Sequence record: PP658200.1 | DNA from: Escherichia phage HY126 | DNA: 64,000 nt | Reading direction: 5' to 3' (one strand) | Notes under the pieces: generated by a model | What the model saw: the letters and a program-made list of their open reading frames with translations, nothing else | Databases searched by the model: none | Told to the model about the DNA's origin: nothing | Translations under genes and position numbers: made by a program | In this document: positions 8,466 through 27,632 of the stretch, piece by piece | Layout of the letters: every line of letters starts with the position of its first letter | Numbering within the stretch: position 1 is the stretch's first letter

Positions 8466-8807
8466 TTAAAAGAATTTAAATTTTTTCTTGGTCCGTTCAT
8501 TAAAAGCTTGTTGTACTTGCATTGTAACACATTTTTCAACATGTGGCGCAAGTTCTGCTTTTCTGTCCTGGTCAAGAACTGCAAAGTCCATTACGATTTT
8601 ACCATCAACCCAGTCTAGTTTTGTAATATAGACTATATGATGGGAACCGTCTTCAAGTGTAATCAGAATCTCTTGAATGACATTTTCCATTGCTGAACGG
8701 ACAATTTTAAGAGATTCATTAAACACTCGTTCTTTGCGAATGTCCTCCCCTTCCAAAGAAGGGGATTCATCAACGATTTCTAGATTTAAATCATCGAGAT
8801 TATTCAT
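8466..8807 (-). CDS. 40: gp40-like head vertex assembly chaperone
   Basis: Position between uvsX and 41 as in T4; ATG at 8805-8807 with GGAAGA SD (track start 8828 is a TTG). Confidence 0.6.
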   Translation of the reverse strand: MNNLDDLNLEIVDESPSLEGEDIRKERVFNESLKIVRSAMENVIQEILITLEDGSHHIVYITKLDWVDGKIVMDFAVLDQDRKAELAPHVEKCVTMQVQQAFNERTKKKFKFF

Positions 8808-9972
8808 CGAAATCTTCCATTTCGTCAAGGTCGTTTTCTATATCTGCTGCAGACGGAGCATCAGAAGTTTTAACCGGAACTTTAGTTGTTGCTTTGCAAT
8901 TAATAAGGTCGTTAACAGCGTCATCAACTTCTTTAATAGAAGAGATAGCACCTAGTTTATATTTAGTTTCAATTGCATCTCGGAAAGGTTTGTGTTTAAA
9001 CAACGGTCCCCAGAATTCTACACAATCAGTAGCTTTAGCACGCCATGATTTTTCTTCACGAATCATTTCGCCTGTTTCTTCGTCAAGGAATTCTCGAGCA
9101 TACCACCCGGCTTTAGGCTTAACTACAAAACCGATTTCAGTTGCCATTTCTAACAAGCCACTGAATGGGTCAATACCGCCATCAAAATTAACCGTGATCG
9201 GGAAAGTAGATTTCTCTTTAACTGTACGAGATTTTTCTGCTTTCAACGTGAAGTCATAACCGGTCAATTCTGTACCTTCTTTAACCTGACGTTTAGAGAT
9301 AAAAAATACCGTGTTGGCAGAATAAAGAATACCTGTACCACCGCCCATAATCTCTTTAGGATATAGTCCGCCGATTTCCATTGCTGTATGGTTAATTGCA
9401 ACACACGGAATATCTTTAATAGTCAGATACGGGGTCACAATACGGAAAAGAGATTTAAGTGCCTTAGCACGAGACATATCACCTACGACTTTCTCGTTCA
9501 ACGCATCTTCGGTTTCTTTCTTAGATGCAGTATTACCGATTGAATCGATAAAGATAATAACTTTATCACCGCGTTCAATCGCGTCAAGCTGATTAGTCAT
9601 ATCAACTTTAAGTTGTTCGACAGATTGAATCGGAGTATGAACTACACGGTCTAAATCAACACCCATTGAACGAAAATAAGATTCTGAAGCACCAAATTCT
9701 GAATCATAGAACAAACAAATTGCATCTTTATATTTCTTCATATATGCTGCAACCATGGTCAGTCCAAACAACGTTTTAAAGTGTTTAGAAGGAGCAGCAA
9801 AAATAGTTAAGCCTGATTGCAACCCAGCATTCAGTGCACCACCTAATGCAATATTCAACATCGGAATACGAGTAGGGACTTCATCGCGATTATTAAACAA
9901 CTTAGACTTAGTCAAGTCTGCAGTCATTTTAGAAGTAGAAGCTTTAATCAGACGAGATTTTAAATCAGACAT
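8800..9972 (-). CDS. uvsX: recombinase UvsX (RecA-like)
   Basis: 390 aa; RecA-fold motifs and overall match to T4 UvsX as recalled. Confidence 0.95.
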   Translation of the reverse strand: MSDLKSRLIKASTSKMTADLTKSKLFNNRDEVPTRIPMLNIALGGALNAGLQSGLTIFAAPSKHFKTLFGLTMVAAYMKKYKDAICLFYDSEFGASESYFRSMGVDLDRVVHTPIQSVEQLKVDMTNQLDAIERGDKVIIFIDSIGNTASKKETEDALNEKVVGDMSRAKALKSLFRIVTPYLTIKDIPCVAINHTAMEIGGLYPKEIMGGGTGILYSANTVFFISKRQVKEGTELTGYDFTLKAEKSRTVKEKSTFPITVNFDGGIDPFSGLLEMATEIGFVVKPKAGWYAREFLDEETGEMIREEKSWRAKATDCVEFWGPLFKHKPFRDAIETKYKLGAISSIKEVDDAVNDLINCKATTKVPVKTSDAPSAADIENDLDEMEDFDE

Positions 9973-10071
9973 TGTATTTTTCCATAGGCATCATTATATT
10001 TTACTCATGTTTAAAAGATAAGACGATTATATACTAAGGGTTATACAGCATTTAAAACTTTAAACAGGCTC

Positions 10072-10620
10072 TTAACGAGCCCATTTGATAATTTCTGTAA
10101 TCAAATTATTACGTTCGCTTGCATTAAATCCTATAACTTTGTTAGCACCATCATGATTAAGTAATTGATACGTTTGGATTTCGTTATGAATTGCAAACTC
10201 TTCAAAATATGAAATGACTGTATTAAAACCGAACGAAGACAAAGTAATAAGGTCGTCTTCAAAACTTTCAGTCATTTCGTTACGTGTTAAAATAATTGTG
10301 AACACATCATGGTTTTGGCAAAGACGAACATAATCCTGTTCATAAACGTCAAGAACCGAGTCCGCATCTTGTCGAATACGTCCATAAACCCAGTTACTAA
10401 TATATCCACGGTCTAACAGATAAATCTTAGTAGGGTCTAAATAATTCAACATCGTTTCGAAACAGCCAACTTCATTTCGAGACTTAACATCGAAACGTCC
10501 ATCAACTGTTCGTTTAGGGAAATCAATCTTTACATATCTTTCACTAATTTCCATTATGTCATTAATGAAAGTTGTTTTACCAGCATTATCCGGGCCATCT
10601 ACTAAAATAATTTTAGCCAT
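10072..10620 (-). CDS. P-loop nucleoside/nucleotide kinase-like protein
   Basis: 182 aa; Walker A VDGPDNAGKTT and LLDRGYISNWVYG (DRxY lid-like) suggest dNK/dTMP-kinase fold; not present at this position in T4. Confidence 0.7.
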   Translation of the reverse strand: MAKIILVDGPDNAGKTTFINDIMEISERYVKIDFPKRTVDGRFDVKSRNEVGCFETMLNYLDPTKIYLLDRGYISNWVYGRIRQDADSVLDVYEQDYVRLCQNHDVFTIILTRNEMTESFEDDLITLSSFGFNTVISYFEEFAIHNEIQTYQLLNHDGANKVIGFNASERNNLITEIIKWAR

Positions 10621-10621
10621 T

Positions 10622-11521
10622 TTATTCCTCGATTACGACATCTTCATATTTAGGTATATTATACGGCGAAGAAATTAAAGCATTAAAGTAGATGAACTCG
10701 CCAAGACCTGGATGGAATACTTCTTCAGGATTTTCGAAATATTGAATCTTCGGACGTCCTTTAAGAATTTGATAGTACTCAGTTTTAGTTGGTTTAAAAA
10801 TTCGAATCAACGCTTCTTCAGGATACTTATTTCTGTCGAAGCTATTATTTGGATCGGTTATATAAAGCGGTTGGCCTAATTGAATTGCACATTCAACCAC
10901 TTGTTCAAAACGATAGCACGGGTCACTAATTCGAAATGGATGAAAAATACCATCTAGATGAATAGGAGCCAAATCACCTACAAGACGCTGCATGATGGAA
11001 GGACGTATAACTTTCTGCGTTACGATAATCTTATTACCATCTGCACCTGCGTTAACCAGCACTTCTTTTTGACGTTCATTCAACACAGTAGTTTGAAGTG
11101 AACGATTAACCGACAACATATCAGTTTTTAAGAATTCGTCAATATAAAAACGTGGTTTATTAGGGTCTGCAGTGATATTGAAATTGAATTCCACATCAAA
11201 AGTGCCGGCATATCCGGTGATATCTGTGATTAGAAAATCACAATCATAATAAGCAATTAATGAATCAACCACAAATTCATTTTCAGACCAGAAATATTTA
11301 CGAGTGTTATACGCGTTATCTTTATACCATAATGGAACAAACTTAAATTCTGGAAAAAGACGTTCGCATTCTTTAATATCAGATGCATTACGTGGATATG
11401 TAATCACATCACCCGGATTAGCACGGTGCAAATGAAGTTGGAAGTTGCCATCCTTAAGGATAGCATACTGTCCAGTTTCATAAGACCGCATACTCAAGAT
11501 AGGTACGCGGAAAATAGCCAT
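10622..11521 (-). CDS. hypothetical protein in the beta-glucosyltransferase syntenic position
   Basis: 299 aa between uvsX and 42, where T4 carries beta-gt; no resemblance to T4 beta-gt noticed; ATGA-coupled to gene 42. Confidence 0.65.
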   Translation of the reverse strand: MAIFRVPILSMRSYETGQYAILKDGNFQLHLHRANPGDVITYPRNASDIKECERLFPEFKFVPLWYKDNAYNTRKYFWSENEFVVDSLIAYYDCDFLITDITGYAGTFDVEFNFNITADPNKPRFYIDEFLKTDMLSVNRSLQTTVLNERQKEVLVNAGADGNKIIVTQKVIRPSIMQRLVGDLAPIHLDGIFHPFRISDPCYRFEQVVECAIQLGQPLYITDPNNSFDRNKYPEEALIRIFKPTKTEYYQILKGRPKIQYFENPEEVFHPGLGEFIYFNALISSPYNIPKYEDVVIEE

Positions 11522-12237
11522 TAGTCAAGGAATCCTTTAACATAATCAAAATCACGTTCAAACACATGGGCACTTACCATGGTATGAGTATAATCACCAA
11601 CTTCTACACCACATTCGTTAGCGATATAATGAAGTAATTTTCCTTGGAGATAAAAATCCAACTGCATAACAACAGCACAGTTCTGAGAACGCATATGACA
11701 GTGGGTATAAAGCTTACCATCACGAATATAATAAGTCACTGAGTCAGTACATGGATATTCAAGCGTTTCGTCTGAATCAAGCAAAGCCTGATCGGAACTT
11801 TCTAGAATTTGGAACACAACTCTTCGGGAGTTAGGCTTCTCTTTAAGTTCTTTTAGAAGAGCTGGTAATTGGGCCGCAATGCGAGGACCATAGAAAGTGT
11901 TGAAGTTTGCAGGCAAAGCGTCTGATTTAGGTTTAGAAATAAATTTAGCGACGTTAGGATATGCCTTAAATGCTTCTTTTGCATCAGTACCACCAGAAAT
12001 CATAAATTTCCAGAAATCTTCAGCATATTCATAAGAGATGCGATTAATACGTGGGTCGGTCATTTTGAATGATGAAGGGGTATCAACAACTACTGTCATA
12101 GACCCAATTTCATTACAACGTCCAATACGAGAATCAGTAACGAACTGTGGATTTTCTAAAATTTCACGATTGACAGCTTTAAATGCGGATTGAAAATCTG
12201 CGGCTTTAATATATTTCATTGTGTTATGTTTTCCCAT
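11521..12237 (-). CDS. 42: dCMP hydroxymethylase gp42 (thymidylate-synthase fold)
   Basis: 238 aa; TS-family core (…RRVVFQIL…PCTDSVTYYIRDGKL…MRSQN…QLDFY…); synteny with T4 gene 42. Confidence 0.85.
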   Translation of the reverse strand: MGKHNTMKYIKAADFQSAFKAVNREILENPQFVTDSRIGRCNEIGSMTVVVDTPSSFKMTDPRINRISYEYAEDFWKFMISGGTDAKEAFKAYPNVAKFISKPKSDALPANFNTFYGPRIAAQLPALLKELKEKPNSRRVVFQILESSDQALLDSDETLEYPCTDSVTYYIRDGKLYTHCHMRSQNCAVVMQLDFYLQGKLLHYIANECGVEVGDYTHTMVSAHVFERDFDYVKGFLD

Positions 12238-12255
12238 GTTTACCTCAATACAGTT

Positions 12256-12281
12256 ATTATATACTCAATTCATAAAGCTTA
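12256..12281 (-). promoter_or_regulatory. possible middle-type promoter for gene 42
   Basis: Minus strand TAAGCTTTA (MotA-box-like, one mismatch) - 11 nt - TATAAT; SD GAGGT follows. Confidence 0.35.
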
Positions 12282-12420
12282 TTTGAATTTCTTAGCGATG
12301 TTGATATAACGTAAAGCTTCAGCATCGATACTTCCAAGAACACTATGAAGAAATGCATCAGCATAGTATTCTAGTTGAACAGGTTTCTTTAATCACTTTA
12401 AGCCGCTTTGGTTTCAAACA

Positions 12421-12439
12421 GGCCCATAAGGGCCTTTTT
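12421..12439 (+). terminator. plus-strand intrinsic terminator in the 42 / U32 intergenic gap
   Basis: GGCCC-AUAA-GGGCC hairpin followed by U5 on plus strand; on minus strand the A-run precedes the hairpin. Confidence 0.5.
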
Positions 12440-12516
12440 AAGAATTTGTTCGTTGCTGTTAATTTTCATAGTCAAAATCTCTTCATTAAGTTGGTGGTTA
12501 AAAGTTTTTCTAGAAA

Positions 12517-13677
12517 TCATTCTGGGTACCTCAAAGCGTCGTCAGAGTTAGTTATATCAATAATAGATATAGAGTTTTCTGATAACCCATTTTTAGATAA
12601 TTGACGTTTATAATATCTTTCACAATATGTACACGTCGTCCCACAGATTTCATTAGCACAATCGAAATCTGGATGTCTGAACCACCTTTTTTCTAAAAAG
12701 CCATCTAACAAAGAGGTTTCAATATTTACCGTATGTGAAAACTCGGTCTCATTTTCAAGAGTGAAAATGGTCTCTAAAGGCTTCCACAATTCCAACAAAT
12801 TACCTTCAAATTTTTCGGAAGCATAAGCTTCAAGAACTTTCAAAATGTAGTCTGTGCTACCTGTACGTCCTGAAACTTTGAATTGAGTGATACCAATATC
12901 ATTATAAAGTTTCAAATCTTGAGGACGAACAAAACGAGTTCTCAACCAGTTAAATGGATCTGTATCACGAGCTTTAATGCAGTGTTGCATTGGATATCCA
13001 TTTAAGGATTTAGCATCATCAGCGGTAACATCAGTACTATGGAAAATATAGCAAGAGTCACGATAGCTACAATGTGTTGTATACCCTTTACCAGCATTAG
13101 AACAGAACTCATTTACAAGAACTTCAAATATTATATTGTTCTTATTGCAAAACTCTGCTGCACGCTTCAGGAAAGAAACCGAACGGTTCTTATGAATTCC
13201 ACAGCAGACCTTTTTGATATTATACTGGTCATGCAAGTATTTGATTTGAGTTACAGCATCGACATGTAGAATTGTTGAAACTTCAATCTCAATGTCTTTA
13301 TTGACTTCACGAACAATTTCCATAACAACAGGGTTAGCGATAGTAATACGCCATACGCCTATTGACCAAAGATACTGAACATAATCCTGAATAGCTTTCT
13401 TCTTCCACTCAACTAGTTCTCTTTTTGAACCAGGATTTATCGTGTTGAGTGTATAGTTAAAGCAAATACCTAATTCGTTACAACGTTTAACGTAATCTTC
13501 TAACATCTTTTTGTCAACGTCAGGAAGCCTAAAATCAGGTCTGGCTGCTACAAAAGCCATTTCTCTTGTAGAGCCGTATACTTCATTTATCAAGCTATTA
13601 GGATAAGTTTTATTGAGCTCTACGATTTTATCAAGAAGAGCTAAATCAAAATTCGTTCCGATTTTAAAAGTATTCAT
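12517..13677 (-). CDS. peptidase-U32-family-like protein (TIM-barrel, Cys-rich; possible Fe-S enzyme)
   Basis: 386 aa; N-terminal …EVYGSTREMAFVAAR… and …EVLVNEFCSNAG…C… resemble U32 signature regions; many C-terminal Cys; assignment from motif memory only. Confidence 0.65.
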   Translation of the reverse strand: MNTFKIGTNFDLALLDKIVELNKTYPNSLINEVYGSTREMAFVAARPDFRLPDVDKKMLEDYVKRCNELGICFNYTLNTINPGSKRELVEWKKKAIQDYVQYLWSIGVWRITIANPVVMEIVREVNKDIEIEVSTILHVDAVTQIKYLHDQYNIKKVCCGIHKNRSVSFLKRAAEFCNKNNIIFEVLVNEFCSNAGKGYTTHCSYRDSCYIFHSTDVTADDAKSLNGYPMQHCIKARDTDPFNWLRTRFVRPQDLKLYNDIGITQFKVSGRTGSTDYILKVLEAYASEKFEGNLLELWKPLETIFTLENETEFSHTVNIETSLLDGFLEKRWFRHPDFDCANEICGTTCTYCERYYKRQLSKNGLSENSISIIDITNSDDALRYPE

Positions 13678-13731
13678 TTTTACATCTCGCGTTAATTGAT
13701 GCGATGGTTTTTGCAGGTCTTACTTAAATTA

Positions 13732-14133
13732 TTATAGATTCGGTTTATATGATTTAAATGTTTCGAATTCGCCTTTATTCATAAGAGCTTTGAATTCGTC
13801 AGGACGCATAGCTTTGTCGTCGATAATCCAATCATATACTGGTTTATGTGTTAGCAAATTATGGTACTTCAAGCCAATGTTTGCCAAGTTCTGAATCAGA
13901 CTTGGGAGAATGTCAATTGCTATACGACCAGGACCTACTGACTTCATACCGCGAGCAGTGTAAAGCGTTATTGTATGCCCTGCATCATACAGGGCATTAA
14001 TGGCAGACACCATTTCGACGTCTGGTTTGAAGTTCACGTAATCACGATTGTTATTCCACTCGGTTATACAATCATCGACATCAAAACAAAGATTAAGCAT
14101 GTTTTCTACACGGTGCATTAGATTCGTTCCCAT
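13732..14133 (-). CDS. HAD-superfamily phosphatase (minimal, capless)
   Basis: 133 aa; motif I FDVDDCIT, conserved T (TLYTARG), K, and motif IV IIDDKA. Confidence 0.65.
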   Translation of the reverse strand: MGTNLMHRVENMLNLCFDVDDCITEWNNNRDYVNFKPDVEMVSAINALYDAGHTITLYTARGMKSVGPGRIAIDILPSLIQNLANIGLKYHNLLTHKPVYDWIIDDKAMRPDEFKALMNKGEFETFKSYKPNL

Positions 14134-15806
14134 TGATGAGTGATATCGCCACCGATTGGACGATAGGAAACACCAGTTTCTTTATCAGTTAGTACCCATT
14201 TACCAGGATTTTTTGTAATCAGAGTAGCCGTTACAGGTTCTGCTACGTCATAACTAATAGAGCCGTCCTGAAGTACACGGCCCATGTTACGTAATTGCTT
14301 AGTCAGAAGTTCCATACCTTTATAATATGCGGCTACCGCTTTAAGTGGATTATTCTTGAAATAACCACCTAATGCAATCCAGATAATTGCCACTGCCAAA
14401 TGATGATACTCGTTAAACGAACTCATCTTTCCATATTTGTAAACTAATGGATTGATGTTAATAGACACATTACAAGTTGTTTCATCAATAGTAAACTGTC
14501 CCCAAGTCGGATTAGCGTTGAATTCATCATAACCTGAAACAGCGTAAAGCACTTTAGCTTCATCATACAATTTTGGCCCATAAATCTTGGTTTCACCAAA
14601 ATATCCACGAGGGTCGATAAACTTGACTTCACAATTATCAGTAATCATAGTATTACTGAAGTTCGGGTCGCCATGAATAACAGAGTACTGTCCCTGAGAA
14701 CGGTTATGATAACGAATAAGGTGTTCTAAAGCTTGTTTCAACATTGGCTTCAGACGCCCAATCTTAGTGTAGTTCACATGTGTTATTTTACCAAATGAAT
14801 CAATCAATGGTTGAATACTTTCACAACGATCAATAACTTTAGTATAGAATTCTTTAGTGAAATCACGACGAACAGTTTCAGGACTTACAAAATAAGTGTC
14901 TGTGCTGAATTTCAGTGCATCTAAAATTGCATCAACAATTTGTGGACGAGCAAGACTTGATTTGGATTTAATATATTCAAATGCTGGCTTACCTTTAATA
15001 CGTTCCATAATAAAGTGGCCGCCAGGATGATAACTTACAATCCGTGGAACTGAATCTGATTTAACTTTCTTATACCAATTGACTTCATCTTTTTGAAGTG
15101 CAACGCCCTGTTCTGTTAAAGCAATCTTTGTTACCGTTTCTTCGCCAATTTCAACTGCATTAAAACTACGATTAAGTTCACGAACTTCATGAGCTTTTTC
15201 AAGTTTAGGCATATCACCAAGGTCGATGATATTCATAAGCTCTGATTTATTGAATGCGCTGCCGTAAAGGAATTCTACGAAATCACGTCCTTTGCAGTAT
15301 TCATGAATTTCCTCATCAGTAGAACCCATATAGAATTCCCAGTCTTTGAACTGATAAATTCCTACAACATTACCACCTGTTGAACCTACATTAGTGATAT
15401 TTTCACCGTCGAAATTATATCGACATTCGTCACCCTTAACATAGATTGCGTTAACATTCCAAGACCACGAACCAAAATCAGGAATAATATCACACCAGTT
15501 AACAATTACATTATGGCCGTCTAAATCTTTGTGCAATTTAGCAAGAGCATAAGCAGAACCATACGCTTCATCAACTGTACGAATAGTCACATTGAACCCT
15601 TCTTGCTCACAATAAGCTCGAACAGTTTCAGCAAATTTTGAATGAACTACTACAATAATTTCATCTGCGCCAAGGTCAGAATAAATTGTATACAAATTGC
15701 TCAGAATAGTGTCTTGTTTATAGTTAACAAGCACCTTAGGAATATGATGCGTTATTGGATACAAACGAGTTGCCAGTCCAGCACCAAGAATAACAGCTTT
15801 TTTCAT
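14118..15806 (-). CDS. bifunctional sugar-1-phosphate nucleotidyltransferase / APH-like sugar kinase
   Basis: 562 aa; N-terminus ILGAGLATRLYPIT..PKVLV (NDP-sugar pyrophosphorylase signature); C-terminus HGDPNFSN…FIDPRG (aminoglycoside/choline-kinase-like catalytic loop). Confidence 0.75.
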   Translation of the reverse strand: MKKAVILGAGLATRLYPITHHIPKVLVNYKQDTILSNLYTIYSDLGADEIIVVVHSKFAETVRAYCEQEGFNVTIRTVDEAYGSAYALAKLHKDLDGHNVIVNWCDIIPDFGSWSWNVNAIYVKGDECRYNFDGENITNVGSTGGNVVGIYQFKDWEFYMGSTDEEIHEYCKGRDFVEFLYGSAFNKSELMNIIDLGDMPKLEKAHEVRELNRSFNAVEIGEETVTKIALTEQGVALQKDEVNWYKKVKSDSVPRIVSYHPGGHFIMERIKGKPAFEYIKSKSSLARPQIVDAILDALKFSTDTYFVSPETVRRDFTKEFYTKVIDRCESIQPLIDSFGKITHVNYTKIGRLKPMLKQALEHLIRYHNRSQGQYSVIHGDPNFSNTMITDNCEVKFIDPRGYFGETKIYGPKLYDEAKVLYAVSGYDEFNANPTWGQFTIDETTCNVSININPLVYKYGKMSSFNEYHHLAVAIIWIALGGYFKNNPLKAVAAYYKGMELLTKQLRNMGRVLQDGSISYDVAEPVTATLITKNPGKWVLTDKETGVSYRPIGGDITHQWERI

Positions 15807-15847
15807 GTTGTGGTCCTCATTGGTAAGTAGGAGTATTGTACACTATT

Positions 15848-15991
15848 CTAGTTAAAGCATTCATACTTTGCTTGTAGTCCAATCATAATCCATCCGATTA
15901 TAAGAGTCGGAATCATTACTGGAGCCGTTAAGCTCCAGTAGATAGTCATGACAAGCATCAATAGTAAAAGTCCTATTGTTATTGCTTTCAT
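15848..15991 (-). CDS. small hydrophobic membrane protein (47 aa, below track cutoff)
   Basis: Translated by eye (MKAITIGLLLLMLVMTIYWSLTAPVMIPTLIIGWIMIGLQAKYECFN); ATGA overlap with stop of SIS isomerase gene. Confidence 0.35.
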   Translation of the reverse strand: MKAITIGLLLLMLVMTIYWSLTAPVMIPTLIIGWIMIGLQAKYECFN

Positions 15992-16623
15992 TGTTCGCCT
16001 CGTAACATGGCACCTAGTGCACCGCCAGGGTGGAACTTAAGGAAGTCATTAGAGGTAAATCCACGTTCAGACGAAAGGTTGATAGCAAACGTATCGATAA
16101 GCGCTAACAACAATGTAGTGGACATAGTCGGAGCCAGAGAATTCTCATCAACCTCTACTGCGATGCCTGTACAGAACGTATAATCAAAAAGAGCTTCGTA
16201 TTCTTGTGGAATGTCCGGGTTACAATGCAACAGAATCTGTTTGACGTTCGGACGAATCATTTTAAGATGCTTAGCCACGCCTATCATTTCTTCAGTTTTA
16301 CCAGAACGACTAATATGAATCAACACATCATTAGGCGCAATGAATCCTGCATCACCGTGAGAATAATGCCCAGTGTTCAAGTACATACTCGGGATACCGA
16401 GTGAAGCAAATGTCTCAGAAGCTTTAGTTGCAATATTAGCATTCTTACCAACACCTGTAATAATTACTCGGCTTTCATAATTACTAAGTCCTGGGCGTCG
16501 AAGAGTTTCTAGAATAGCATTATAACGAGCAGGGTTTTGACTAATTACTTTGGCCATAGCGGCCAAAGAAGAAGCTTGTTTTATGATTGCGTCAATAGCG
16601 ATAGTAATAGGAGTAGTTTTCAT
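15988..16623 (-). CDS. SIS-domain sugar-phosphate isomerase, KdsD/GutQ-like (arabinose-5-phosphate isomerase)
   Basis: 211 aa; GVGKNANIATKASETFASLGIPS, ISRSGKTEE, LAPTMSTT and FHPGGALG match the SIS domain of A5P isomerases; no CBS domains. Confidence 0.8.
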   Translation of the reverse strand: MKTTPITIAIDAIIKQASSLAAMAKVISQNPARYNAILETLRRPGLSNYESRVIITGVGKNANIATKASETFASLGIPSMYLNTGHYSHGDAGFIAPNDVLIHISRSGKTEEMIGVAKHLKMIRPNVKQILLHCNPDIPQEYEALFDYTFCTGIAVEVDENSLAPTMSTTLLLALIDTFAINLSSERGFTSNDFLKFHPGGALGAMLRGEQ

Positions 16624-16663
16624 ATTTCTCTCATTTAATTAGTTTACCGTCCATGACATTATA

Positions 16664-19375
16664 TCAAAAATCGAACATATCGAACAGAGATGCTTTCTTC
16701 TCATAATCGAGTTTCGCTGCTGATGTGAATCCTTCAAGTGGTTTAATAAATGTCTTCTCAAGGAGAACAGTGTAGTCCATCCAGTGAAGTACATCGTCTT
16801 TAATTAAATCTGTGATTTCAGTACCAGAAGGCCATGCGATACATTTATCACCGAATGGGTTTCCTTCACGTAAAGGCAGAACATATACTTTTTCACCTTC
16901 TACAACTTGCGGTGCATCGATATTACCTTTGATAGCACGGTTATACGTCAGAATTCCACGAATATGGAACGGGCATTTGGGACCAGGGAATCCACCTACA
17001 TCATATTTAGCAATGTTATTCGCAGAAGATACCGACGCGATGCTAATATAATTCAATTGACGGAATTCTTTTTCAAACTCTTTAAAATATTCTTGTAATG
17101 ATTCTTCACCTTCTTGAAGCATACGACGAATACATTCTTTAAGAGCTTTCTGTACTGCTTTAGGAGTCGAAGATTTCTGAGTCTCTAGACCCATGATTTT
17201 GAGTTTAGGCTCAGCGTAACGAGTACCTTCCATATCCCACACGTTTAATGCATAACGTTTCTTACCAGTCCAGAATCCACCAATACCTTTAGAACCGAGT
17301 GGAGGCCCAGCGATAGCTTCTCGGTCCATGAACATTAAGTGTTGTTTATTGTTCATGTATTCACACATTTCACGGAAACCTCTATCAATAGCTGGTTCCA
17401 TACGTTCACGTGCAAACTTATCTAAGAAGTCTACCCAATGGTTGGTATCACGGAATTTAGATTCACCAACCTTATCGATAATTTTATCAGCAGATACGTA
17501 AATAGAGTCTGTATCACCATAAAGAACGAAAGCTTCACCTTCTGTACCACAAACTTCATTCAGATATTCATTAACTTTACGTTCAATCCACTGTAAAGCC
17601 ATTTGCCCGAATGTTGTGATTGCAGTAGCATTACGCAAATCATAATAACGGAACCAAACGTTGCCAAGTGCACCATAAAGCGAGTTGATGAGCAATTTAC
17701 GGTTAATTTGGGCAGTCATACCTGCAACTTCAGTACGTTGAGCTCTAAACAACATTTCATTAAGAGATTTAGCAGACAACTTTTTAATCTTTTCTTTAAT
17801 CTCATCGCTGAAGTCGAAACGATAATCAACATCTAATGGTTCGTCAACAGAAAGATTAGGATTATGCAATGCCTCTTTAATTATTTCACCATTACGTTGA
17901 GCTGCAAGCATGTAACCTTTATGTTCTTTACGTTGATTAAAGACCTTAGTGATTTCAGTTGGAACTACACCATCACGGTCTTTATAATACATCATGCCGT
18001 TAGGAGAACAACTGTACACATCAGAAGGACGTTCAGCAACAGCGTTAATATAATCATGCAATGGAGCTACTTTAAACGTTCCTGCTATTGTTTCTGGGCT
18101 AATATTCACTTGGCGAATAATACTTGGATACAGAGATGTGAGGTCGAAGCTCATCACATATTTGTATCGATTTGGAATAGGTTCCTTAACAAAAGCACCA
18201 GGATAAGGTTGAACCGGATGAGAACGACCTTGTGGAATCACCTTGTTCTGCTCTTTAAGGCTATTAAAAATAATAGCATCCCATGTTTTAATTGGGCTAA
18301 ACACGGATTGAATCTGTATCTTAGCATAATAACCCATGTCCAAACTCAAGTTGATGAACTGACGCTTAGCATCAATTTGCAATACACGATACACGTCGAT
18401 AATGTTATAAGAAATATATCGTTGGTGATTGCTTTCACGAAGCTTAGAAATAGGGCCGTCATATTTCAGTTTACCAACGTTCAATTCAAATTCTGAAATG
18501 TAATCCAGAGAATACGACGGTTGATTGGTAAAAGAGAATTTTTTGTAAAGGTCAATGTAATCAAGAACAGAGATACCGAACAGTGTAATGATTTCACGAG
18601 AACCATACATGTTTTCGATAACTTTAACACGAGTTTTACGATGTGGTGATAAACGTTTCGCAGTAGATTCGCCAAAAATATTCTTGATTCGGTTATACAC
18701 ATATGGAATATCAAATGACTCAACGTTCCATCCAGTCAAAATGACAGGAGTTTTCTGTTGCCAGAAGTTGAGATATTCCATCAACAATTCTTTTTCGTTA
18801 TCGAACGGCATATAAATGATTTTATCGATAATTTCGGATGGAACTTCATCACCACCTTGTTCTTGAAGCTTAGCTGCAATTTCGATAGACCATTCTTCCA
18901 CATTACCATATGGAGAATTCAATAGATCAAATACGTAGAACCTGTCGTCAATTGAGTCATAATGAGTGATAGCATCAATAGGATGTTTTGCTTGTGACGG
19001 CTCAGGGAACCCATCCGGAGATGTTACTTCGATGTCGAAGTTAGCCACACGAATTTTTGTATGGTCGTATTTGATTTCATAGTTATAAGTGTCAGACAAA
19101 TACGCCAATTTGAAATCGTCCATGCCAAGTGCTTCAAGTCCGATATCTTCCATGCGTTTAATCCATTGTGAGGCATCACGCATATTAGCGAACAACTTAC
19201 GAGTACACGGCTTACCGTAGATATCGAAATATTTCGTAGCCTGACTTTCCGGACAATGAGCAAACAGTGATGGTTTATATTCTACTTCACGAGTACGTTC
19301 ACGGCCGTTAGAATCGATGTAACGTTCAAAAATTGAATCACCAATCTGTTCAACCGTTAAGTAAAATTCTTTCAT
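16664..19375 (-). CDS. 43: DNA polymerase gp43 (family B)
   Basis: 903 aa; sequence recognised as RB69-type gp43 (MKEFYLTVEQIGDSIFERYIDSNGRERTREVEYKPSLFAHCPESQ…; exo motifs, YGDTDS). Confidence 0.97.
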   Translation of the reverse strand: MKEFYLTVEQIGDSIFERYIDSNGRERTREVEYKPSLFAHCPESQATKYFDIYGKPCTRKLFANMRDASQWIKRMEDIGLEALGMDDFKLAYLSDTYNYEIKYDHTKIRVANFDIEVTSPDGFPEPSQAKHPIDAITHYDSIDDRFYVFDLLNSPYGNVEEWSIEIAAKLQEQGGDEVPSEIIDKIIYMPFDNEKELLMEYLNFWQQKTPVILTGWNVESFDIPYVYNRIKNIFGESTAKRLSPHRKTRVKVIENMYGSREIITLFGISVLDYIDLYKKFSFTNQPSYSLDYISEFELNVGKLKYDGPISKLRESNHQRYISYNIIDVYRVLQIDAKRQFINLSLDMGYYAKIQIQSVFSPIKTWDAIIFNSLKEQNKVIPQGRSHPVQPYPGAFVKEPIPNRYKYVMSFDLTSLYPSIIRQVNISPETIAGTFKVAPLHDYINAVAERPSDVYSCSPNGMMYYKDRDGVVPTEITKVFNQRKEHKGYMLAAQRNGEIIKEALHNPNLSVDEPLDVDYRFDFSDEIKEKIKKLSAKSLNEMLFRAQRTEVAGMTAQINRKLLINSLYGALGNVWFRYYDLRNATAITTFGQMALQWIERKVNEYLNEVCGTEGEAFVLYGDTDSIYVSADKIIDKVGESKFRDTNHWVDFLDKFARERMEPAIDRGFREMCEYMNNKQHLMFMDREAIAGPPLGSKGIGGFWTGKKRYALNVWDMEGTRYAEPKLKIMGLETQKSSTPKAVQKALKECIRRMLQEGEESLQEYFKEFEKEFRQLNYISIASVSSANNIAKYDVGGFPGPKCPFHIRGILTYNRAIKGNIDAPQVVEGEKVYVLPLREGNPFGDKCIAWPSGTEITDLIKDDVLHWMDYTVLLEKTFIKPLEGFTSAAKLDYEKKASLFDMFDF

Positions 19376-22586: not shown

Positions 22587-22787
22587 TTATTCGTAGAAGT
22601 CGGTAACTGTCCATGCGGAATTGCGATTAGACATTATTTTATTATACTCATCTTTAAAAGCAGATTTGAGCATTTGTTCAGTAACAATATGTTCTTCACC
22701 TGAAAACGTATTGGTCAAAACATATTTTTTAATTTCAGGGACAACGAGAAGATGTTGCCCGGTTGAATACTCCATGTTGTTCTCCAT
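22587..22787 (-). CDS. hypothetical protein (T4 45.2 position)
   Basis: 66-aa minus ORF tiling between 46 and rpbA. Confidence 0.5.
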   Translation of the reverse strand: MENNMEYSTGQHLLVVPEIKKYVLTNTFSGEEHIVTEQMLKSAFKDEYNKIMSNRNSAWTVTDFYE

Positions 22788-22829
22788 TTAATTTGATGTG
22801 GTCATTATAACCACATCATGTTAAAGCGT

Positions 22830-24518
22830 TTATGAAACAGTCATTACCGTAAATCGTCCAACTTTGCTCATCTGAAGATGTTGTCCATAAGCTTGTGGGT
22901 CATGGTCTCTATGACTAATTATAAACACGTTTGCATCGGTTAGAGAGTTAAGAATTGTTGAAATAGCTTTAATACCTTCAGAATCAGTAGCGGAATCCAT
23001 GACTTCGTCCATAATTAATGTATTGATTCTAACACCAGAGACCTTTTCAGCAATATCTCGCCATGTAAACAACAATGCGATATCGATACGTGCCTTTTCA
23101 CCTTGACTAAATGAAGCATAACTAAAATCTTCACGACCACGTGATTTTATAGATTCATTGAATTCTTCGTCAATAGAAAATACGTAATCAGCTTCCATGA
23201 TTTTAAGATAATGGTTAATCTGCTTGTTGAACAGAGGCACATATTTTTTAATGATAGCACCTTTAATACCAGAATCTTTTAACATATCTGTGATAATACC
23301 ACGATGGTATTTTTCAAGAACGATATCAGATTTTGTTTTAATGATTTTATCAAGTTCTTTTTGAAGCAAAGCTATCTCATCAGCATGGTCGATAAATTCC
23401 GCCGAGGCTTGTTCTATTGCAGCTTTAACTTTCTTAGCTTTATCAATAGTGGCAATCATTGCTTGTTTCTTGGTACGAATATCAGATGCAAGGTCCTGTT
23501 TAGTCTTAACATTAGCTCTATATTCGTCCACTAGGACACTCAGATTATCTCTGTGACATGTAAGTTGCTCGAATGAGTGATTACATTCATGAAGCTTATT
23601 GGTAATCTTAGAGACAATAGGATCACCCTGGTGCAACTGTGATGCACAAGTAGGACATGTACCACCATCATGATACATCTTAATAACTTTGTTATACGAG
23701 TCAATTTTAGATTTAATCAAGAATGCTTCTTGTCCTATCTTGTTGAATGCCTCAGTAGGGTCTTCATCAAGAACGATATTAAGTAGTCGCTCATTAGCTT
23801 CTTCGATTTCTGCTTTTAATGAACGAGCTTCTTTGGCTAGGTCGTCATACATATTCTGTAGACGCGCTACATTATCACCAGATAATTTCTTTTGACGTTC
23901 GATATTCTCGTTATAAATCTTAATTTGTTGGATAACACCATCTTTCTTGGCATCGAGAACTTGTCCCTGGGAATTAAGTTCTCGAACTTGAGACTTATTG
24001 ATTTTATCCATTTCAGCGAGTGTGCCGACTTCTAAAAGGTCTTCGACAAGTTTTCTGCGAGCAGGGGTGCTAAGAGCCATGAAAGGGGTATACCCTGCCG
24101 TCCCAAGCACAACGATTTGTTTAAAAGACGCGTATGACATTCCGATGCTGCGTTCAAATTCTTCTTGGAAGTCACGACTGCTGGCAGATTCATCAAGACG
24201 AACACCGTCAACGGAGATTTCGAAAATATTGGGCTTTTGGCCACGTTTAATGAAGTATTTTTTACCATCGAATTCCATCCAAAGCTCAACTAAGAGCTCT
24301 TTCTTGTTCGTGCTATTAATGATTTGCCCTTTCTTAACATCACGAAATGGTTTACCGAAAAGTCCGAAAGTAATGGCTTCTAACATCGTAGATTTACCAC
24401 CACCATTTTTACCAGTGATTAATGTCTTTTGGACTTTATCTAATTGGATGTCAATAGGATTCCCACCTACCGACATGATGTTTTGATAACGAACACGATT
24501 TAATTTAAATGATTTCAT
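22830..24518 (-). CDS. 46: recombination endonuclease subunit gp46 (SbcC/Rad50-like)
   Basis: 562 aa; Walker A GKNGGGKST, central coiled coil with CPTC zinc hook, C-terminal signature/D-loop region. Confidence 0.95.
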   Translation of the reverse strand: MKSFKLNRVRYQNIMSVGGNPIDIQLDKVQKTLITGKNGGGKSTMLEAITFGLFGKPFRDVKKGQIINSTNKKELLVELWMEFDGKKYFIKRGQKPNIFEISVDGVRLDESASSRDFQEEFERSIGMSYASFKQIVVLGTAGYTPFMALSTPARRKLVEDLLEVGTLAEMDKINKSQVRELNSQGQVLDAKKDGVIQQIKIYNENIERQKKLSGDNVARLQNMYDDLAKEARSLKAEIEEANERLLNIVLDEDPTEAFNKIGQEAFLIKSKIDSYNKVIKMYHDGGTCPTCASQLHQGDPIVSKITNKLHECNHSFEQLTCHRDNLSVLVDEYRANVKTKQDLASDIRTKKQAMIATIDKAKKVKAAIEQASAEFIDHADEIALLQKELDKIIKTKSDIVLEKYHRGIITDMLKDSGIKGAIIKKYVPLFNKQINHYLKIMEADYVFSIDEEFNESIKSRGREDFSYASFSQGEKARIDIALLFTWRDIAEKVSGVRINTLIMDEVMDSATDSEGIKAISTILNSLTDANVFIISHRDHDPQAYGQHLQMSKVGRFTVMTVS

Positions 24519-24769
24519 ATGTATTCTCTTCGAATGAAGTCCTCTACATATTTTAACATGTCATCTCTATCAGCAAAATATTCATCTAGTTCTGCATACA
24601 TAACAACACCTGGTGCGTACTCACAGGTAACATACATTGTTCCAAAGAAACGAGGAGTTGATTCCTCGTAATTCTCAGTCCATTCAACGATACCAATATA
24701 ACCGTCACCAATACTAAATTCGTGACGATGGATTTCATAGTCAGTCTTCGTCATTATACGCATCCTCAA
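24515..24769 (-). CDS. hypothetical protein (84 aa)
   Basis: Minus ORF, ATGA-coupled to gene 46. Confidence 0.5.
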   Translation of the reverse strand: MRMRIMTKTDYEIHRHEFSIGDGYIGIVEWTENYEESTPRFFGTMYVTCEYAPGVVMYAELDEYFADRDDMLKYVEDFIRREYI

Positions 24770-24998
24770 TACACGCTTCAGCCATTTTAAGAATAGAGCC
24801 AGGAGTATCGTTGTCCATTATATTAAAGCTAAATTCAATAGCCCAGTCGGTGCAGACATGAACTGCTTTAACTTCATTACCTTCAACGCGTAATGGCTCA
24901 ATCCAATACTTGATAGTGTTCTCGAATCCATCACCATCTTTAACGTCTATTTCAGCTTCAAGCCCGAGCCCAGCATTGTTAAATTCATCTAAAGTCAT
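24741..24998 (-). CDS. hypothetical acidic protein (85 aa)
   Basis: Minus ORF, coupled to gene 47 stop. Confidence 0.5.
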   Translation of the reverse strand: MTLDEFNNAGLGLEAEIDVKDGDGFENTIKYWIEPLRVEGNEVKAVHVCTDWAIEFSFNIMDNDTPGSILKMAEACIEDAYNDED

Positions 24999-26014
24999 TG
25001 TGTTGCCTCAATATAAAGTTCGTTAGAATATTTGACCAGCGCTTCTCTGTCTTCGTCTGAGATATCTGGAATCGCGTCAATATATTCTTTAATGATATCT
25101 TGAAGTGATTTAATCTCGATTTCCTGGTCGTCATCAGATTCAACACTGTTATCAACTTTAGAAACCATACGAAGAGAGTGTACTACTTTTTCAAGTTCAG
25201 ATTCAAACTTAGTCAACTCTGAATCAATTTCTGATACTATAACACGTAAGGCTAGATTAGTATAATCAGAATAATTGATTTTGCCTTTAAATGGATAAGT
25301 GATTCGTCGATGCCATGTTGTTTCATTAGGAATAAATTCCATACGTTCAACATCAGTGTCAAATACCCAGAATCCGCGCGGGTCGTTCTCATCGCCTGCA
25401 GTAAGTGTCCATGGTGTCCCAATATATTTGACGTTAGCAGCTTCAGAGATTGTGTGGAAGTGGCCGGACCAGACTTGTTTATAGGTCTTTAAGAAATCAG
25501 GTTCAAGCCCATGAGACTTCATTCCTTTATAGAAATAAAAGCCGTTCAGTTCCCAGTGCCCAACACAATACGCTGCGGAAGAAGTCTTGATGTGCTCTAA
25601 GATTTCACCTGTATTTTCTTCACACATCCATGGAACGATATCAATCAGACATCCGTCAAAATCTACAGTAGTTGGATGCTCGTAAATAGTAAAGTTTTCA
25701 AATTGAGTTAACAATTCAGAAACAGTGTTAGGTGTTATTGTATTCTTAAACGCCATGTCATGGTTTCCTATCGTGACATGAACGTGAATGCCTGCTTTAG
25801 AAATCATATCAACAATTTCACGATTGAATTCCATTGTACGATGTGTTATTGCTTTACGGACGTCAAACCAATCACCGTACTGAATCCAAGTTTTAATCCC
25901 GTGTTTCTTAGAGTATTCAATTGCTTGACGAATACCATCACGTTGAATATCTTGAACCCATGGGTCGTCTTGTTTGACTCCGATATGGAAGTCGCCTAAG
26001 TGCAAAATTTTCAT
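24995..26014 (-). CDS. 47: recombination nuclease subunit gp47 (SbcD/Mre11-like)
   Basis: 339 aa; calcineurin-like phosphoesterase motifs (LHLGDFH, GNHD, GHWE, GHFH). Confidence 0.95.
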   Translation of the reverse strand: MKILHLGDFHIGVKQDDPWVQDIQRDGIRQAIEYSKKHGIKTWIQYGDWFDVRKAITHRTMEFNREIVDMISKAGIHVHVTIGNHDMAFKNTITPNTVSELLTQFENFTIYEHPTTVDFDGCLIDIVPWMCEENTGEILEHIKTSSAAYCVGHWELNGFYFYKGMKSHGLEPDFLKTYKQVWSGHFHTISEAANVKYIGTPWTLTAGDENDPRGFWVFDTDVERMEFIPNETTWHRRITYPFKGKINYSDYTNLALRVIVSEIDSELTKFESELEKVVHSLRMVSKVDNSVESDDDQEIEIKSLQDIIKEYIDAIPDISDEDREALVKYSNELYIEATQ

Positions 26015-26037
26015 ATTATTTCCTCATTAGTTAATTC

Positions 26038-26063
26038 ATTCTATCATCCGTTTATAAAGCAAA
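26038..26063 (-). promoter_or_regulatory. T4 middle-type promoter (MotA box) for gene 47
   Basis: Minus strand TTTGCTTTA (MotA box) - 11 nt - TAGAAT, placed right after a terminator and before the SD GAGGAAATAAT. Confidence 0.5.
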
Positions 26064-26085
26064 AAAAGGAACTCCGAAGAGTTCC
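26061..26085 (-). terminator. intrinsic terminator
   Basis: Minus strand GGAACUC-UUCG-GAGUUCC hairpin followed by U7; overlaps stop of the small upstream ORF. Confidence 0.7.
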
Positions 26086-26258
26086 TATCCACATAGTACA
26101 CCGTACAGAGGCTCATTTGAACTTTTAAATCGAATGGGCTTGTATGTAATAGTTCCTTCGGCTTTAGCTTTATCATAAGACTCTTTAAAACGTCTCATTC
26201 TTTCTGCTTTGCCTTTACGGATTTTATCGAAATTTTCAGAGGTCAGGTCGTTCGTCAT
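26085..26258 (-). CDS. small basic protein (57 aa, below track cutoff)
   Basis: Translated by eye (MTNDLTSENFDKIRKGKAERMRRFKESYDKAKAEG…); GAGGTG SD; ends at terminator. Confidence 0.35.
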   Translation of the reverse strand: MTNDLTSENFDKIRKGKAERMRRFKESYDKAKAEGTITYKPIRFKSSNEPLYGVLCG

Positions 26259-26297
26259 GCATAATCACCTCTCAGAAAATACCTAAATCGATTTCTC

Positions 26298-26519
26298 TCA
26301 TCGTTTCCACCATTTCTTAACTTGAAATGAATCAACCCACACGAGTTGTTTTGGGTCTGCCTTTACAATAGGCGGACAAATTTCTGTAATAGAACCGTCG
26401 TGATATTCCTTTTCGGAAATTTTAACACAAAGAGGACCTCCCAATTTAAGGGTGAACCCTGCGTTCAGCTTCAGACGTTTAAACTTTGTTTGAACTAGCG
26501 CCATTAATGATGTCCTCAA
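26298..26519 (-). CDS. hypothetical protein (73 aa)
   Basis: Minus ORF in region where T4 carries alpha-gt; no GT-size ORF present. Confidence 0.45.
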   Translation of the reverse strand: MRTSLMALVQTKFKRLKLNAGFTLKLGGPLCVKISEKEYHDGSITEICPPIVKADPKQLVWVDSFQVKKWWKR

Positions 26520-26802
26520 TAGCCTGACGAGTAGTAACCCACTGGATTTTAATTAACTTGTCATTATATGGTTGTCGTAGAATATCCCGAGATTTCTTAA
26601 TAGCATATTCGTAAGCTTCGAAGTTGTTTTGAATTGCTGCTTCTTGAGCATGAGCATAAAGACGGTTTAGCTCAAAACGATTCTTTTTAAGAATCTTTTC
26701 GGATTTTTTACGTGCTTCAGCTTCATTTTTCTTTTGGATTTCTTGTAGCATTTTAGCTACTGCATCTTCTGCTTCTTTATTTTCAATAATCTCGGTAGTC
26801 AT
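26479..26802 (-). CDS. hypothetical protein (107 aa)
   Basis: Minus ORF; overlaps neighbour by about 40 nt so start or stop context uncertain. Confidence 0.5.
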   Translation of the reverse strand: MTTEIIENKEAEDAVAKMLQEIQKKNEAEARKKSEKILKKNRFELNRLYAHAQEAAIQNNFEAYEYAIKKSRDILRQPYNDKLIKIQWVTTRQAIEDIINGASSNKV

Positions 26803-26803
26803 A

Positions 26804-27006
26804 TTATCTCATTAAATTAAAATAAAAACGTCCATCCTCTTCAATACAGAACTCATACTCAACCGGAGTCCCATTTATCGAAAATGACACGTCATGTGGG
26901 TTCAAAGGGTCGATGTCAAAATTAATTTTAAATTCACGACCCAACAGTTTTACCAAATAAGGGATTGCTTCGTCAAAAGGTTCTTCTAAGTAGTTAGAGA
27001 TGTCAA
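26804..27006 (-). CDS. hypothetical protein (about 67 aa)
   Basis: Start refined to ATG that overlaps gene 55 stop (ATGA). Confidence 0.45.
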
Positions 27007-27560: not shown

Positions 27561-27632
27561 AAGTACCTCTTAGCTCAATTCATAGGTCTATTATATCATA
27601 ATATTTAGAGACCTATCTTAAAGCACGAGATA

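Follow-up and report, generated by a model that had tools for sequence, protein, structure and literature searches.

The question raised by this locus is what is made by a protein that carries a sugar nucleotidyltransferase and a kinase on one chain, and at which step of a pathway each of the two domains acts. The protein is encoded by an open reading frame of 562 residues at positions 14118-15806 of the window, by which we mean the whole stretch of 64,000 nucleotides that was analysed (record PP658200.1). It lies on the minus strand, as do all genes and domains for which coordinates are given below, and it matches PHROG 4098 with an E value of 1e-293. The source phage is an RB69-like Mosigvirus. 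The block from uvsX to gp43 is colinear with that of RB69 at 97.3% nucleotide identity, and the proteins of the cluster are each 95-100% identical to their RB69 counterparts. As in RB69, the gene adjoins gp43 and is placed between the genes of a SIS isomerase and a HAD phosphatase. For comparison, RB69 ORF53_52c (gp52:53) was repaired by taking out the known extra C in NC_004928, and its amino acid identity with the 562-residue protein is 96.4%. Sixteen of the 20 amino acid differences, together with a one-codon indel, are grouped at residues 228-266 in the N-lobe of the kinase. From its sequence the open reading frame looks like a real and fully functional gene, with both domains apparently catalytic and the activity predicted. 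Very probably it is a Mosigvirus gene orthologous to RB69 gp52:53 and to AfhE of HY126, with a bifunctional product that takes part in making UDP-D-arabinofuranose for the glycosylation of 5-hydroxycytosine in phage DNA.

The novelty implied by the original prediction does not hold, as the gene is already known. It was singled out in 2018, when it was predicted to act in UDP-arabinose synthesis (PMC6024577), and was assigned in 2025-2026; RB69 gp52:53 is equated with AfhE of phage HY126 in PMC13326640 (NAR 2026). The orthologue in the Bas46 record is annotated as a 'putative enzyme involved in UDP-arabinose biosynthesis'. The domain architecture, the intact catalytic motifs, the orthology and synteny with RB69 and the conserved, sometimes fused, gene linkage come from the present analysis, while the substrates, the order of the steps and UDP as the nucleotide are taken from the literature. 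The primary biochemical papers on the AfhE/AfhF pathway are reportedly those of He et al. (Nat Chem Biol 2026) and Mahler et al. (Cell Host Microbe 2025).

The proposal that a single chain combines an NDP-sugar pyrophosphorylase with an APH-like kinase is confirmed by Pfam, by the fold of an AlphaFold model and by invariant catalytic residues. The alignment of homologues and the model were both made from positions 14118-15803, that is, without Met1, and the residue numbers given here are the true positions. The overall pLDDT of the model is 91.5. The folds of both domains agree with their assignment, the N-terminal one being Rossmann-like and of the nucleotidyltransferase type and the C-terminal one a bilobal kinase fold. 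Catalytic residues are kept in both. A search of the PDB with the single sequence or a profile found no solved structure of AfhE.

The N-terminal sugar-1-phosphate nucleotidyltransferase domain spans residues 1 to about 206 (15189-15806). Residues 3-99 match Pfam PF00483 with 38.9 bits, above the curated cut-off of 21.2. Residues G10, R14, K24, D106, R129 and G197 are invariant; G10, R14, K24 and D106, which represent the G-x-G-x-x-R-L signature, the lysine of the PK motif and the metal-binding aspartate, are so in all 46 sequences and line up with the corresponding motifs of HddC. The kinase domain, residues about 207-508 (14283-15188), does not reach the curated cut-offs of Pfam APH (15.2 versus 23.2 bits) or EcKL (15.7 versus 22 bits), and is classed by sequence model as a divergent relative within the APH/choline-kinase-like group (PF01636 clan). 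It contains the catalytic loop H-x-D-x4-N (H378-G-D380-x4-N385), the downstream metal-binding aspartate D398 and the lysine-glutamate pair K227 (strand beta-3) and E241 (helix alpha-C). All 46 homologues, the most distant at 24% identity, keep these six residues, and in the AlphaFold model K227 belongs to a strand and E241 to the helix after it. Four further basic residues of this domain, R213, R327, R400 and K418, are also invariant and would suit a phosphorylated substrate. The chain ends in a tail of 54 residues (509-562; 14121-14282) with a conserved TK-P-KW-L-D-ETG-Y-P motif. The tail is present in every homologue from T4-like phages (at least 37% identity), is missing from distant homologues and is modelled at low confidence (pLDDT 47-76). 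This phage-specific segment might serve as a docking site for partner enzymes.

It is important to consider the genes on either side. Upstream, at 15988-16623, is a SIS-domain protein (RB69 gp55, 99% amino acid identity; Pfam SIS E 1.7e-10; PHROG 5670 'arabinose 5-phosphate isomerase' E 2e-116), predicted to convert ribulose 5-phosphate (Ru5P) to arabinose 5-phosphate (Ara5P). Downstream, at 13732-14118, is a small HAD-type phosphatase of 128 residues (RB69 gp51/AfhF type, 99% identity). It carries motif I as FDVDDC and belongs to PHROG 1238; a Pfam search of this 128-residue protein gave no match, and its role is taken from the account in PMC13326640. The ATG of the HAD gene overlaps the stop codon of the AfhE-type gene (TAATG), and the two are translationally coupled. 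The neighbourhood thus holds an Ara5P isomerase, a HAD phosphatase, a ThyA-like 5-hydroxy-dCMP synthase and a DNA glycosyltransferase, and the same core set of genes is found in one Acinetobacter phage and one Erwinia phage.

The ThyA-like 5-hydroxy-dCMP synthase is encoded at 11521-12237 (RB69 gp48, 98.7% identity; Pfam Thymidylat_synt), and the activity of RB69 gp48 is shown in PMC13326640. The putative first DNA arabinosyltransferase, so assigned in the same paper, lies at 10622-11521 (RB69 gp46:47, 98-100% identity; PHROG 3891), and a P-loop nucleotide kinase at 10072-10620 (RB69 gp45, 98.9% identity; PHROG 761 'thymidylate kinase'). Farther away, at 1476-1997, a tblastn search of the window with RB69 gp56 located a protein 97% identical to this dCTPase, which by the RB69 annotation would clear canonical dCTP from the pool. 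At 12517-13677 there is a protein of the Peptidase U32 family (RB69 gp50, 99.7% identity; Pfam PF01136 E 7e-11). This U32 protein is a candidate for an oxygen-independent cytosine hydroxylase. Chorismate mutase as an identity for RB69 ORF049c was rejected, with no Pfam match and no similarity found. A scan for promoters and terminators between 9.9 and 19.6 kb gave 29 promoter-like sites, compared with 36.7 expected.

The matches to named enzymes could be taken to mean that the protein is a pair of the LicA/LicC or AmgK/MurU kind, acting on choline, an amino sugar or a heptose and outside DNA modification. LicC, LicA, MurU and HddC do rank near the top by structure or by sequence, and database records name the gene GlmU or mannose-1-P guanylyltransferase. 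However, identity to the named enzymes is just 12-21%, every NCBIfam match of the 562-residue protein is far under its curated cut-off, and in RB69, Bas46/47, NP, 92A1, Thanatos and DLP3, which are phages with arabinose-bearing DNA, the gene is strictly syntenic with the genes of the arabinose-5-P isomerase and of the 5hoC/arabinosyltransferase set. A substrate other than arabinose is therefore extremely unlikely. Arabinose, one of the sugars that the original prediction listed for assay, was the right one to suspect, according to the published account of AfhE (PMC13326640).

In that account, as far as it concerns the pathway, AfhE acts both as a D-arabinose-5-phosphate 1-kinase and as a UDP-D-arabinose pyrophosphorylase, the route runs Ara5P to Ara-1,5-P2 to Ara-1-P to UDP-Ara, and AfhF (RB69 gp51) is the HAD phosphatase that removes the 5-phosphate ahead of the nucleotidyltransferase. 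In the phage studied here, D-arabinose-5-P would be formed from host ribulose-5-P by the upstream SIS isomerase. With ATP, the C-terminal APH-like kinase domain would then phosphorylate the anomeric C1 hydroxyl to give arabinofuranose-1,5-bisphosphate, and the coupled HAD phosphatase would take off the 5-phosphate to leave Araf-1-P. The N-terminal domain would join Araf-1-P with UTP to form UDP-Araf and pyrophosphate, and phage glycosyltransferases would transfer arabinose from UDP-Araf to 5hoC in DNA. A start from the 5-phosphate probably keeps the sugar locked as a furanose, which would explain why the kinase step comes before the phosphatase step. Since a phosphatase is needed between the kinase and the transferase, the two fused domains would catalyze non-consecutive steps.

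The original prediction was that a free sugar is converted directly to an NDP-sugar. This finds no support in the published account, where the kinase of AfhE acts on Ara5P and a separate HAD phosphatase intervenes between the two steps (PMC13326640). The gene context, with the SIS isomerase upstream and the coupled HAD gene downstream, also agrees with the Ara5P route and speaks against the free-sugar claim. In the salvage-type order that goes with this prediction, the HAD enzyme would first free D-arabinose from Ara5P, the kinase would phosphorylate C1 and the transferase would at once make NDP-arabinose, so that the fusion catalyzes two consecutive steps. The set of SIS, HAD, kinase and nucleotidyltransferase genes is compatible with this order too, and the structurally nearest pairs, AmgK/MurU and LicA/LicC, use unphosphorylated substrates in consecutive steps. 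The roles in Table 1 of PMC13326640 are even given in terms of this order, as 'phosphorylates Ara to Araf1p' and as 'dephosphorylates Araf5p to Ara', so that, as far as this source goes, a single study on one phage stands behind the sequence of steps. On chemical grounds, however, free D-arabinose would go mainly to the pyranose, whereas the sugar in the DNA and the working donor are furanoses: UDP-Araf, not UDP-Arap, works as the donor for the DLP3 transferases in vitro on RB69 DNA (PMC13326640). The N-terminal domain is nearest by sequence to HddC and the HAD match given in that paper is GmhB-like, and both speak for a heptose-type route by way of a bisphosphate. The four extra invariant basic residues of the kinase domain argue in the same direction. 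Removal of the phosphate before the kinase step is thus unlikely, and the route through the bisphosphate is preferred.

The nucleotide deserves separate comment. The pathway could be the same with GDP-, CDP- or dTDP-arabinose in place of UDP-arabinose in the phage lineage. By sequence, the N-terminal domain is matched best by HddC, which takes GTP, and by fold it is matched best by LicC, which takes CTP. The position that often reads the base (E80, in the segment VDEAYGS) is variable across the family, and reading the nucleotide specificity from this segment was dropped for that reason. The original prediction left the nucleotide undecided, but this has been overtaken, as UDP is now reported for AfhE, named as a UDP-D-arabinose pyrophosphorylase in PMC13326640. 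The same paper also writes 'NDP-arabinose, potentially UDP-arabinose'. On the other hand, UDP-Araf is the donor taken by the DLP3 arabinosyltransferases (PMC13326640), and the UTP- or dTTP-dependent enzymes MurU, RmlA and GalU match the structure equally well. Another carrier is very improbable, and UDP-arabinofuranose remains the expected product.

Relatives of the protein occur outside the T4-like phages. Single-chain fusions of four domains in the order HAD-SIS-NT-kinase, where NT is the nucleotidyltransferase, about 890-955 residues long, are found on metagenome contigs with giant-virus-like gene content, and the NT-kinase unit also occurs in a eukaryotic transcriptome. An archaeal-looking contig has the gene order SIS, NT/kinase, small HAD-like, with SIS proteins 36% identical (E 1e-31). 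The 127-residue open reading frame of contig L006 may encode a HAD protein, to judge by weak Pfam HAD matches and a DVDG motif; BLASTP of the phage HAD protein against it gave no significant similarity, nor did BLASTP of the phage glycosyltransferase against an open reading frame of 312 residues. The fusions, the transcriptome and the archaeal-looking gene string together lead us to suggest, tentatively, that the NT-kinase unit may lie at the heart of a portable cassette for 'Ru5P to NDP-pentofuranose' that extends beyond the T4-like phages. Should the non-phage relatives also produce NDP-D-arabinofuranose, the use of activated D-Araf, in glycans or in the modification of nucleic acids, would reach far past the phages that have been studied.

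Since UDP-D-arabinofuranose is not known as a normal metabolite of enterobacteria, a phage that arabinosylates every cytosine must carry its own pathway, two of whose four supply steps would be catalyzed by the AfhE-type enzyme. The arabinose coat on the cytosines shields phage DNA against restriction enzymes and CRISPR-Cas. In about 370 phage records the labels are 'hypothetical', 'GlmU' or 'mannose-1-P guanylyltransferase' for the gene, with 'phosphoheptose isomerase' for the HAD partner. There is little new in the gene itself, and interest shifts to the U32 protein, the tail of 54 residues and the non-phage fusions.

Among known systems, RB69 ORF53_52c, gp82 of Acinetobacter phage DLP3 and HY126 AfhE are like the present protein in length, domain order and position by gp43, and there is no material difference; proteins of Acinetobacter phages are about 56% identical to it. 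The comparison with AmgK/MurU fits at the level of the fold, MurU being a top structural match. However, these enzymes of MurNAc recycling in Pseudomonas are separate proteins of 15-17% identity, whose consecutive steps start from a free amino sugar and have no phosphatase step in the middle. LicA and LicC of S. pneumoniae, a choline kinase and a CTP:phosphocholine cytidylyltransferase, differ in their choline substrate, in the use of CTP and in being two separate proteins. The parallel with fucokinase/GDP-fucose pyrophosphorylase (FKP) is apt in function, as kinase and pyrophosphorylase activities are likewise on one polypeptide, but fails in fold. The kinase of FKP has the GHMP fold, its substrate is the free sugar and its two steps are consecutive. 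No match to FKP appeared in any search made. Membership in the salvage-type FKP fusions was rejected on the APH fold of the kinase and on the account in PMC13326640 of Ara5P as the AfhE substrate with a phosphatase step between.

The NDP-heptose pathway (GmhA, SIS; HddA or HldE kinase; GmhB, HAD; HddC or HldE transferase) follows the same logic in four steps. A ketose phosphate is isomerized, phosphorylation at the anomeric position gives a bisphosphate, loss of the distal phosphate follows and the sugar 1-phosphate is nucleotidylated. In E. coli HldE, too, the kinase and the transferase are fused though their steps are non-consecutive. The sugar there is a heptose and the product serves LPS or capsule, whereas the phage enzyme is assigned to a pentose (Ru5P/Ara5P) and to DNA modification. 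HddC aligns end to end with the N-terminal domain (E 3e-18), but the phage kinase has the APH/choline-kinase fold, while HddA is a GHMP kinase and the kinase of HldE is PfkB-like. The NDP-heptose enzymes, HldE or HddA with HddC, are therefore an analogue of the phage enzyme in logic, and only its transferase half is HddC-like.

The gene at window 14118-15806 is located on the minus strand and encodes a protein of 562 amino acid residues; the plus-strand frame there is full of stops. It starts with ATG, has GAGGA 7 nt upstream, and ends in a TAATG overlap, in which its TAA stop shares bases with the ATG of the HAD gene. The motifs quoted in the original prediction, GAGLATRL (aa 8-15), PKVLV (aa 23-27), HGDPNFSN (aa 378-385) and IDPRG (aa 397-401), are all found, and the predicted combination of a pyrophosphorylase and an APH-like kinase in one chain is borne out by Pfam, the invariant residues and the AlphaFold2 model. 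Pfam places NTP_transferase at aa 3-99, over the curated cut-off, while aa 238-406 give weak matches, under the respective cut-offs, to the models for APH, EcKL and fructosamine kinase. NCBIfam gives nothing but far-sub-threshold matches to many sugar-1-phosphate nucleotidyltransferases. PHROG 4098 ("unknown function") covers the full length of the protein (E 1e-293).

Homologues were gathered (148), and 46 sequences, ranging from 24 to 97% identity, were aligned; alignment and model lack Met1, and the residue numbers quoted here are true positions. Invariant in the N-terminal half are G10, R14, T19, K24, L26, W104, D106, R129, G149 and G197. The C-terminal half retains R213, F215, N216, K227, E241, Y245, R327, H378-G379-D380, N385, I397-D398-P399-R400-G401 and a YD-AK-LY-G-YD-FN block. 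These residues include the textbook catalytic set of a transferase (the arginine in GxGxxRL, the lysine in PK and the aspartate that binds the metal) and that of a kinase (the beta-3 Lys/alpha-C Glu pair together with the HxDxxxxN loop and an Asp equivalent to that of DFG). Non-catalytic, degenerate domains, the outcome named as contrary to the prediction, were looked for; neither domain is degenerate, and thus that outcome was not observed. In the AlphaFold2 model built from the homologue alignment (pLDDT 91.5, pTM 0.87), K227 falls in a strand, E241 in the helix after it. The structural matches of the C-terminal half are fructosamine-3-kinase (13.3), choline-kinase family proteins (13.0 and 12.8) and aminoglycoside kinases (about 12.5). 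The proposed analogy of fold with AmgK/MurU is right, and the one with FKP holds for function and for nothing beyond it. A search of the PDB by sequence found no AfhE-like structure. The chain ends in a tail of 54 residues (aa 509-562, window 14121-14282, minus strand) with the conserved motif TK-P-KW-L-D-ETG-Y-P; it is kept in all homologues from T4-like phages, missing from distant ones, and modelled at low confidence (pLDDT 47-76).

The region is 99% identical in Escherichia phages EP02SG, PNJ-9 and vB_EcoM-ZQ3 and 95-98% identical in about 150 further Mosigvirus (RB69-like T-even) genomes. RB69 22776-33350 is colinear with window 8800-19375 at 97.3% nucleotide identity; UvsX and gp43 are 100% identical to those of RB69, and every protein between them is 95-100% identical. 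In the RB69 GenBank record the gene is broken into ORF052c and ORF053c, by one extra C according to the alignment; the same error was corrected by resequencing by Thomas et al. 2018 (PMC6024577). With the extra C removed, the two proteins are 96.4% identical. The gene is under purifying selection, with 52 synonymous versus 19 non-synonymous codon differences from RB69. A patch in the kinase N-lobe (aa 228-266, window 15009-15125, minus strand) holds 16 of the 20 replacements relative to RB69 and a one-codon indel, the proteins being nearly identical elsewhere; either a variable loop or a small patch of recombination could account for it.

The function of this gene is already given by the literature. 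Thomas et al. 2018 (PMC6024577) picked ORF53_52c and the adjacent ORF055c as candidates for UDP-arabinose synthesis, and the record of BASEL phage Bas46 labels the orthologue "putative enzyme involved in UDP-arabinose biosynthesis". According to Lee et al. 2026 (PMC13326640), the DNA of RB69 and DLP3 contains 5-hydroxycytosine carrying one to three arabinoses, not hmC; the ThyA-like gp48 makes 5-hydroxy-dCMP with O2; and gp52:53 is AfhE of phage HY126. As an orthologue, the window gene is nearly identical to one that has been under discussion since 2018 and received its assignment in 2025-2026; it is already known. Arabinose, the sugar suggested in the original prediction, agrees with this published assignment.

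Outside the T4-like phages, single chains of about 890-955 residues have the order HAD_2, SIS, NTP_transferase and APH-like kinase, with 29-34% identity to the window protein (L003 5545-8283; L009 7001-9760; proteins P0081, P0083, P0087, P0090 and P0094). P0083 comes from a eukaryotic transcriptome. The metagenome contigs of these fusions carry SNF2 helicase, Peptidase_C48, XRN and Glyco_transf_25 genes, a gene content that looks like that of giant viruses. The linkage also persists outside phages in distant homologues with two domains (26-29% identity). In the archaeal-looking contig L006 (6397-8900), which also encodes diphthamide synthase, translin and ribosomal protein L16, a SIS gene (36% identity, E 1e-31) is followed by the transferase/kinase and a 127-residue ORF that has the motif DVDG and matches HAD models weakly. 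In the 101-kb contig L007 (7001-9231) a HAD_2 gene adjoins the homologue, and DUF5755, NeuB, capsule-synthesis and sulfotransferase genes are present.

In about 370 phage records the counterparts of window 13732-15806 are named inconsistently: AfhE orthologues appear as hypothetical, GlmU, mannose-1-P guanylyltransferase or dCMP deaminase, and the HAD phosphatase widely as "phosphoheptose isomerase" or "haloacid dehydrogenase". Between the SIS and AfhE-type genes lies a very hydrophobic 47-residue ORF (MKAITIGLLLLMLVMTIYWSL..., window 15848-15991, minus strand), its ATG and the stop of the SIS gene overlapping (ATGA). Its PHROG match is 3610 (unknown function, E 4.5e-27); it is annotated with 36 residues in RB69 (gp54) and is wrongly named "putative phosphosugar isomerase" in one record. 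The counterpart of the 79-residue RB69 ORF049c (window 12257-12520, minus strand), between the U32 and ThyA-like genes, is interrupted: the frame stays open for the first 40 codons alone (12398-12520) and then meets a stop. ORF049c was ruled out as a chorismate mutase, having no similarity to one.

The most interesting side lead of the cluster is the Peptidase_U32 homologue at window 12517-13677 (minus strand; RB69 gp50), for which loci L012 (4492-6697) and L013 (8662-9749) were also examined. Lee et al. (PMC13326640) call gp50 only a "sugar or heterocycle reductase" and do not mention U32. The U32 family carries out O2-independent hydroxylation: RlhA (5-hydroxycytidine in rRNA), TrhP (5-hydroxyuridine, ho5U, in tRNA) and UbiU/V (ubiquinone synthesis), with prephenate as the oxygen donor shown for the UbiU/V pathway and proposed for the family. 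The phage protein occurs in 221 records, the listed hosts all being facultative anaerobes of the Enterobacterales or Shewanella; it is at least 80% identical throughout, while AfhE in the same phages falls to 43-65%. An Acinetobacter phage, which infects a strict aerobe, has a cluster that is syntenic except that the U32 gene is absent. In 54 phages, among them Serratia LC53 and 92A1 and Shewanella Thanatos-2, the U32 locus encodes a genuine type II chorismate mutase (PF01817, E 1.7e-11), the product of which is prephenate; Erwinia phage Virsaitis27 has the mutase gene immediately between those of U32 and the ThyA-like hydroxylase (5hodCMP synthase). Family chemistry, host distribution, absence from the aerobe's phage and the chorismate mutase neighbour together suggest that the U32 gene may provide a second way to 5-hydroxycytosine, one that needs no oxygen, for use when infection takes place in anoxic conditions. 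A literature search found no paper tying phage U32 to 5-hydroxycytosine, although He et al. 2026 or Mahler et al. 2025 may do so.

The AfhE-type gene is preceded by a SIS isomerase gene (window 15988-16623; PHROG "arabinose 5-phosphate isomerase", E 2e-116) and followed by the translationally coupled gene of a 128-residue HAD protein with an FDVDDC motif (13732-14118). The core of SIS, transferase/kinase, HAD, ThyA-like, GT and kinase genes is also present in Acinetobacter and Erwinia phages. In Lee et al. (PMC13326640), AfhE is described, after He et al. 2026, as a kinase acting on D-arabinose-5-phosphate and a UDP-D-arabinose pyrophosphorylase, and the HAD protein AfhF (RB69 gp51) as the enzyme that, between both AfhE steps, takes a phosphate off Ara-1,5-bisphosphate. 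The prediction that a free sugar is turned straight into an NDP-sugar is unsupported, since the substrate reported there for the kinase is a phosphorylated sugar and a distinct phosphatase acts in between. Because Table 1 of the same paper still words the roles in the free-sugar order, that order is kept as a minor, improbable alternative. The kinase-first order on the sugar phosphate fits the ring chemistry of Ara5P: on chemical grounds, Ara5P closes to a furanose ring only, so that phosphorylation of C1 before removal of the 5-phosphate would fix the furanose form found in DNA. Arabinosylation in vitro by DLP3 gp76 and gp77 works with UDP-Araf, not with UDP-Arap (PMC13326640).

HddC aligns end to end with the AfhE family profile (E 3e-18). 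This similarity, the flanking SIS and HAD genes, the core kept in other phages, the four-domain fusions and the gene order in contig L006 lend independent support to the published assignment. HddC is an enzyme of the NDP-heptose pathway, whose steps lead from a SIS isomerase through an anomeric kinase and a HAD bisphosphate phosphatase to a nucleotidyltransferase; the phage arabinose pathway is its pentose counterpart. E. coli HldE is a fusion of the non-consecutive kinase and transferase steps, and the AfhE-type protein likewise joins both in one chain.
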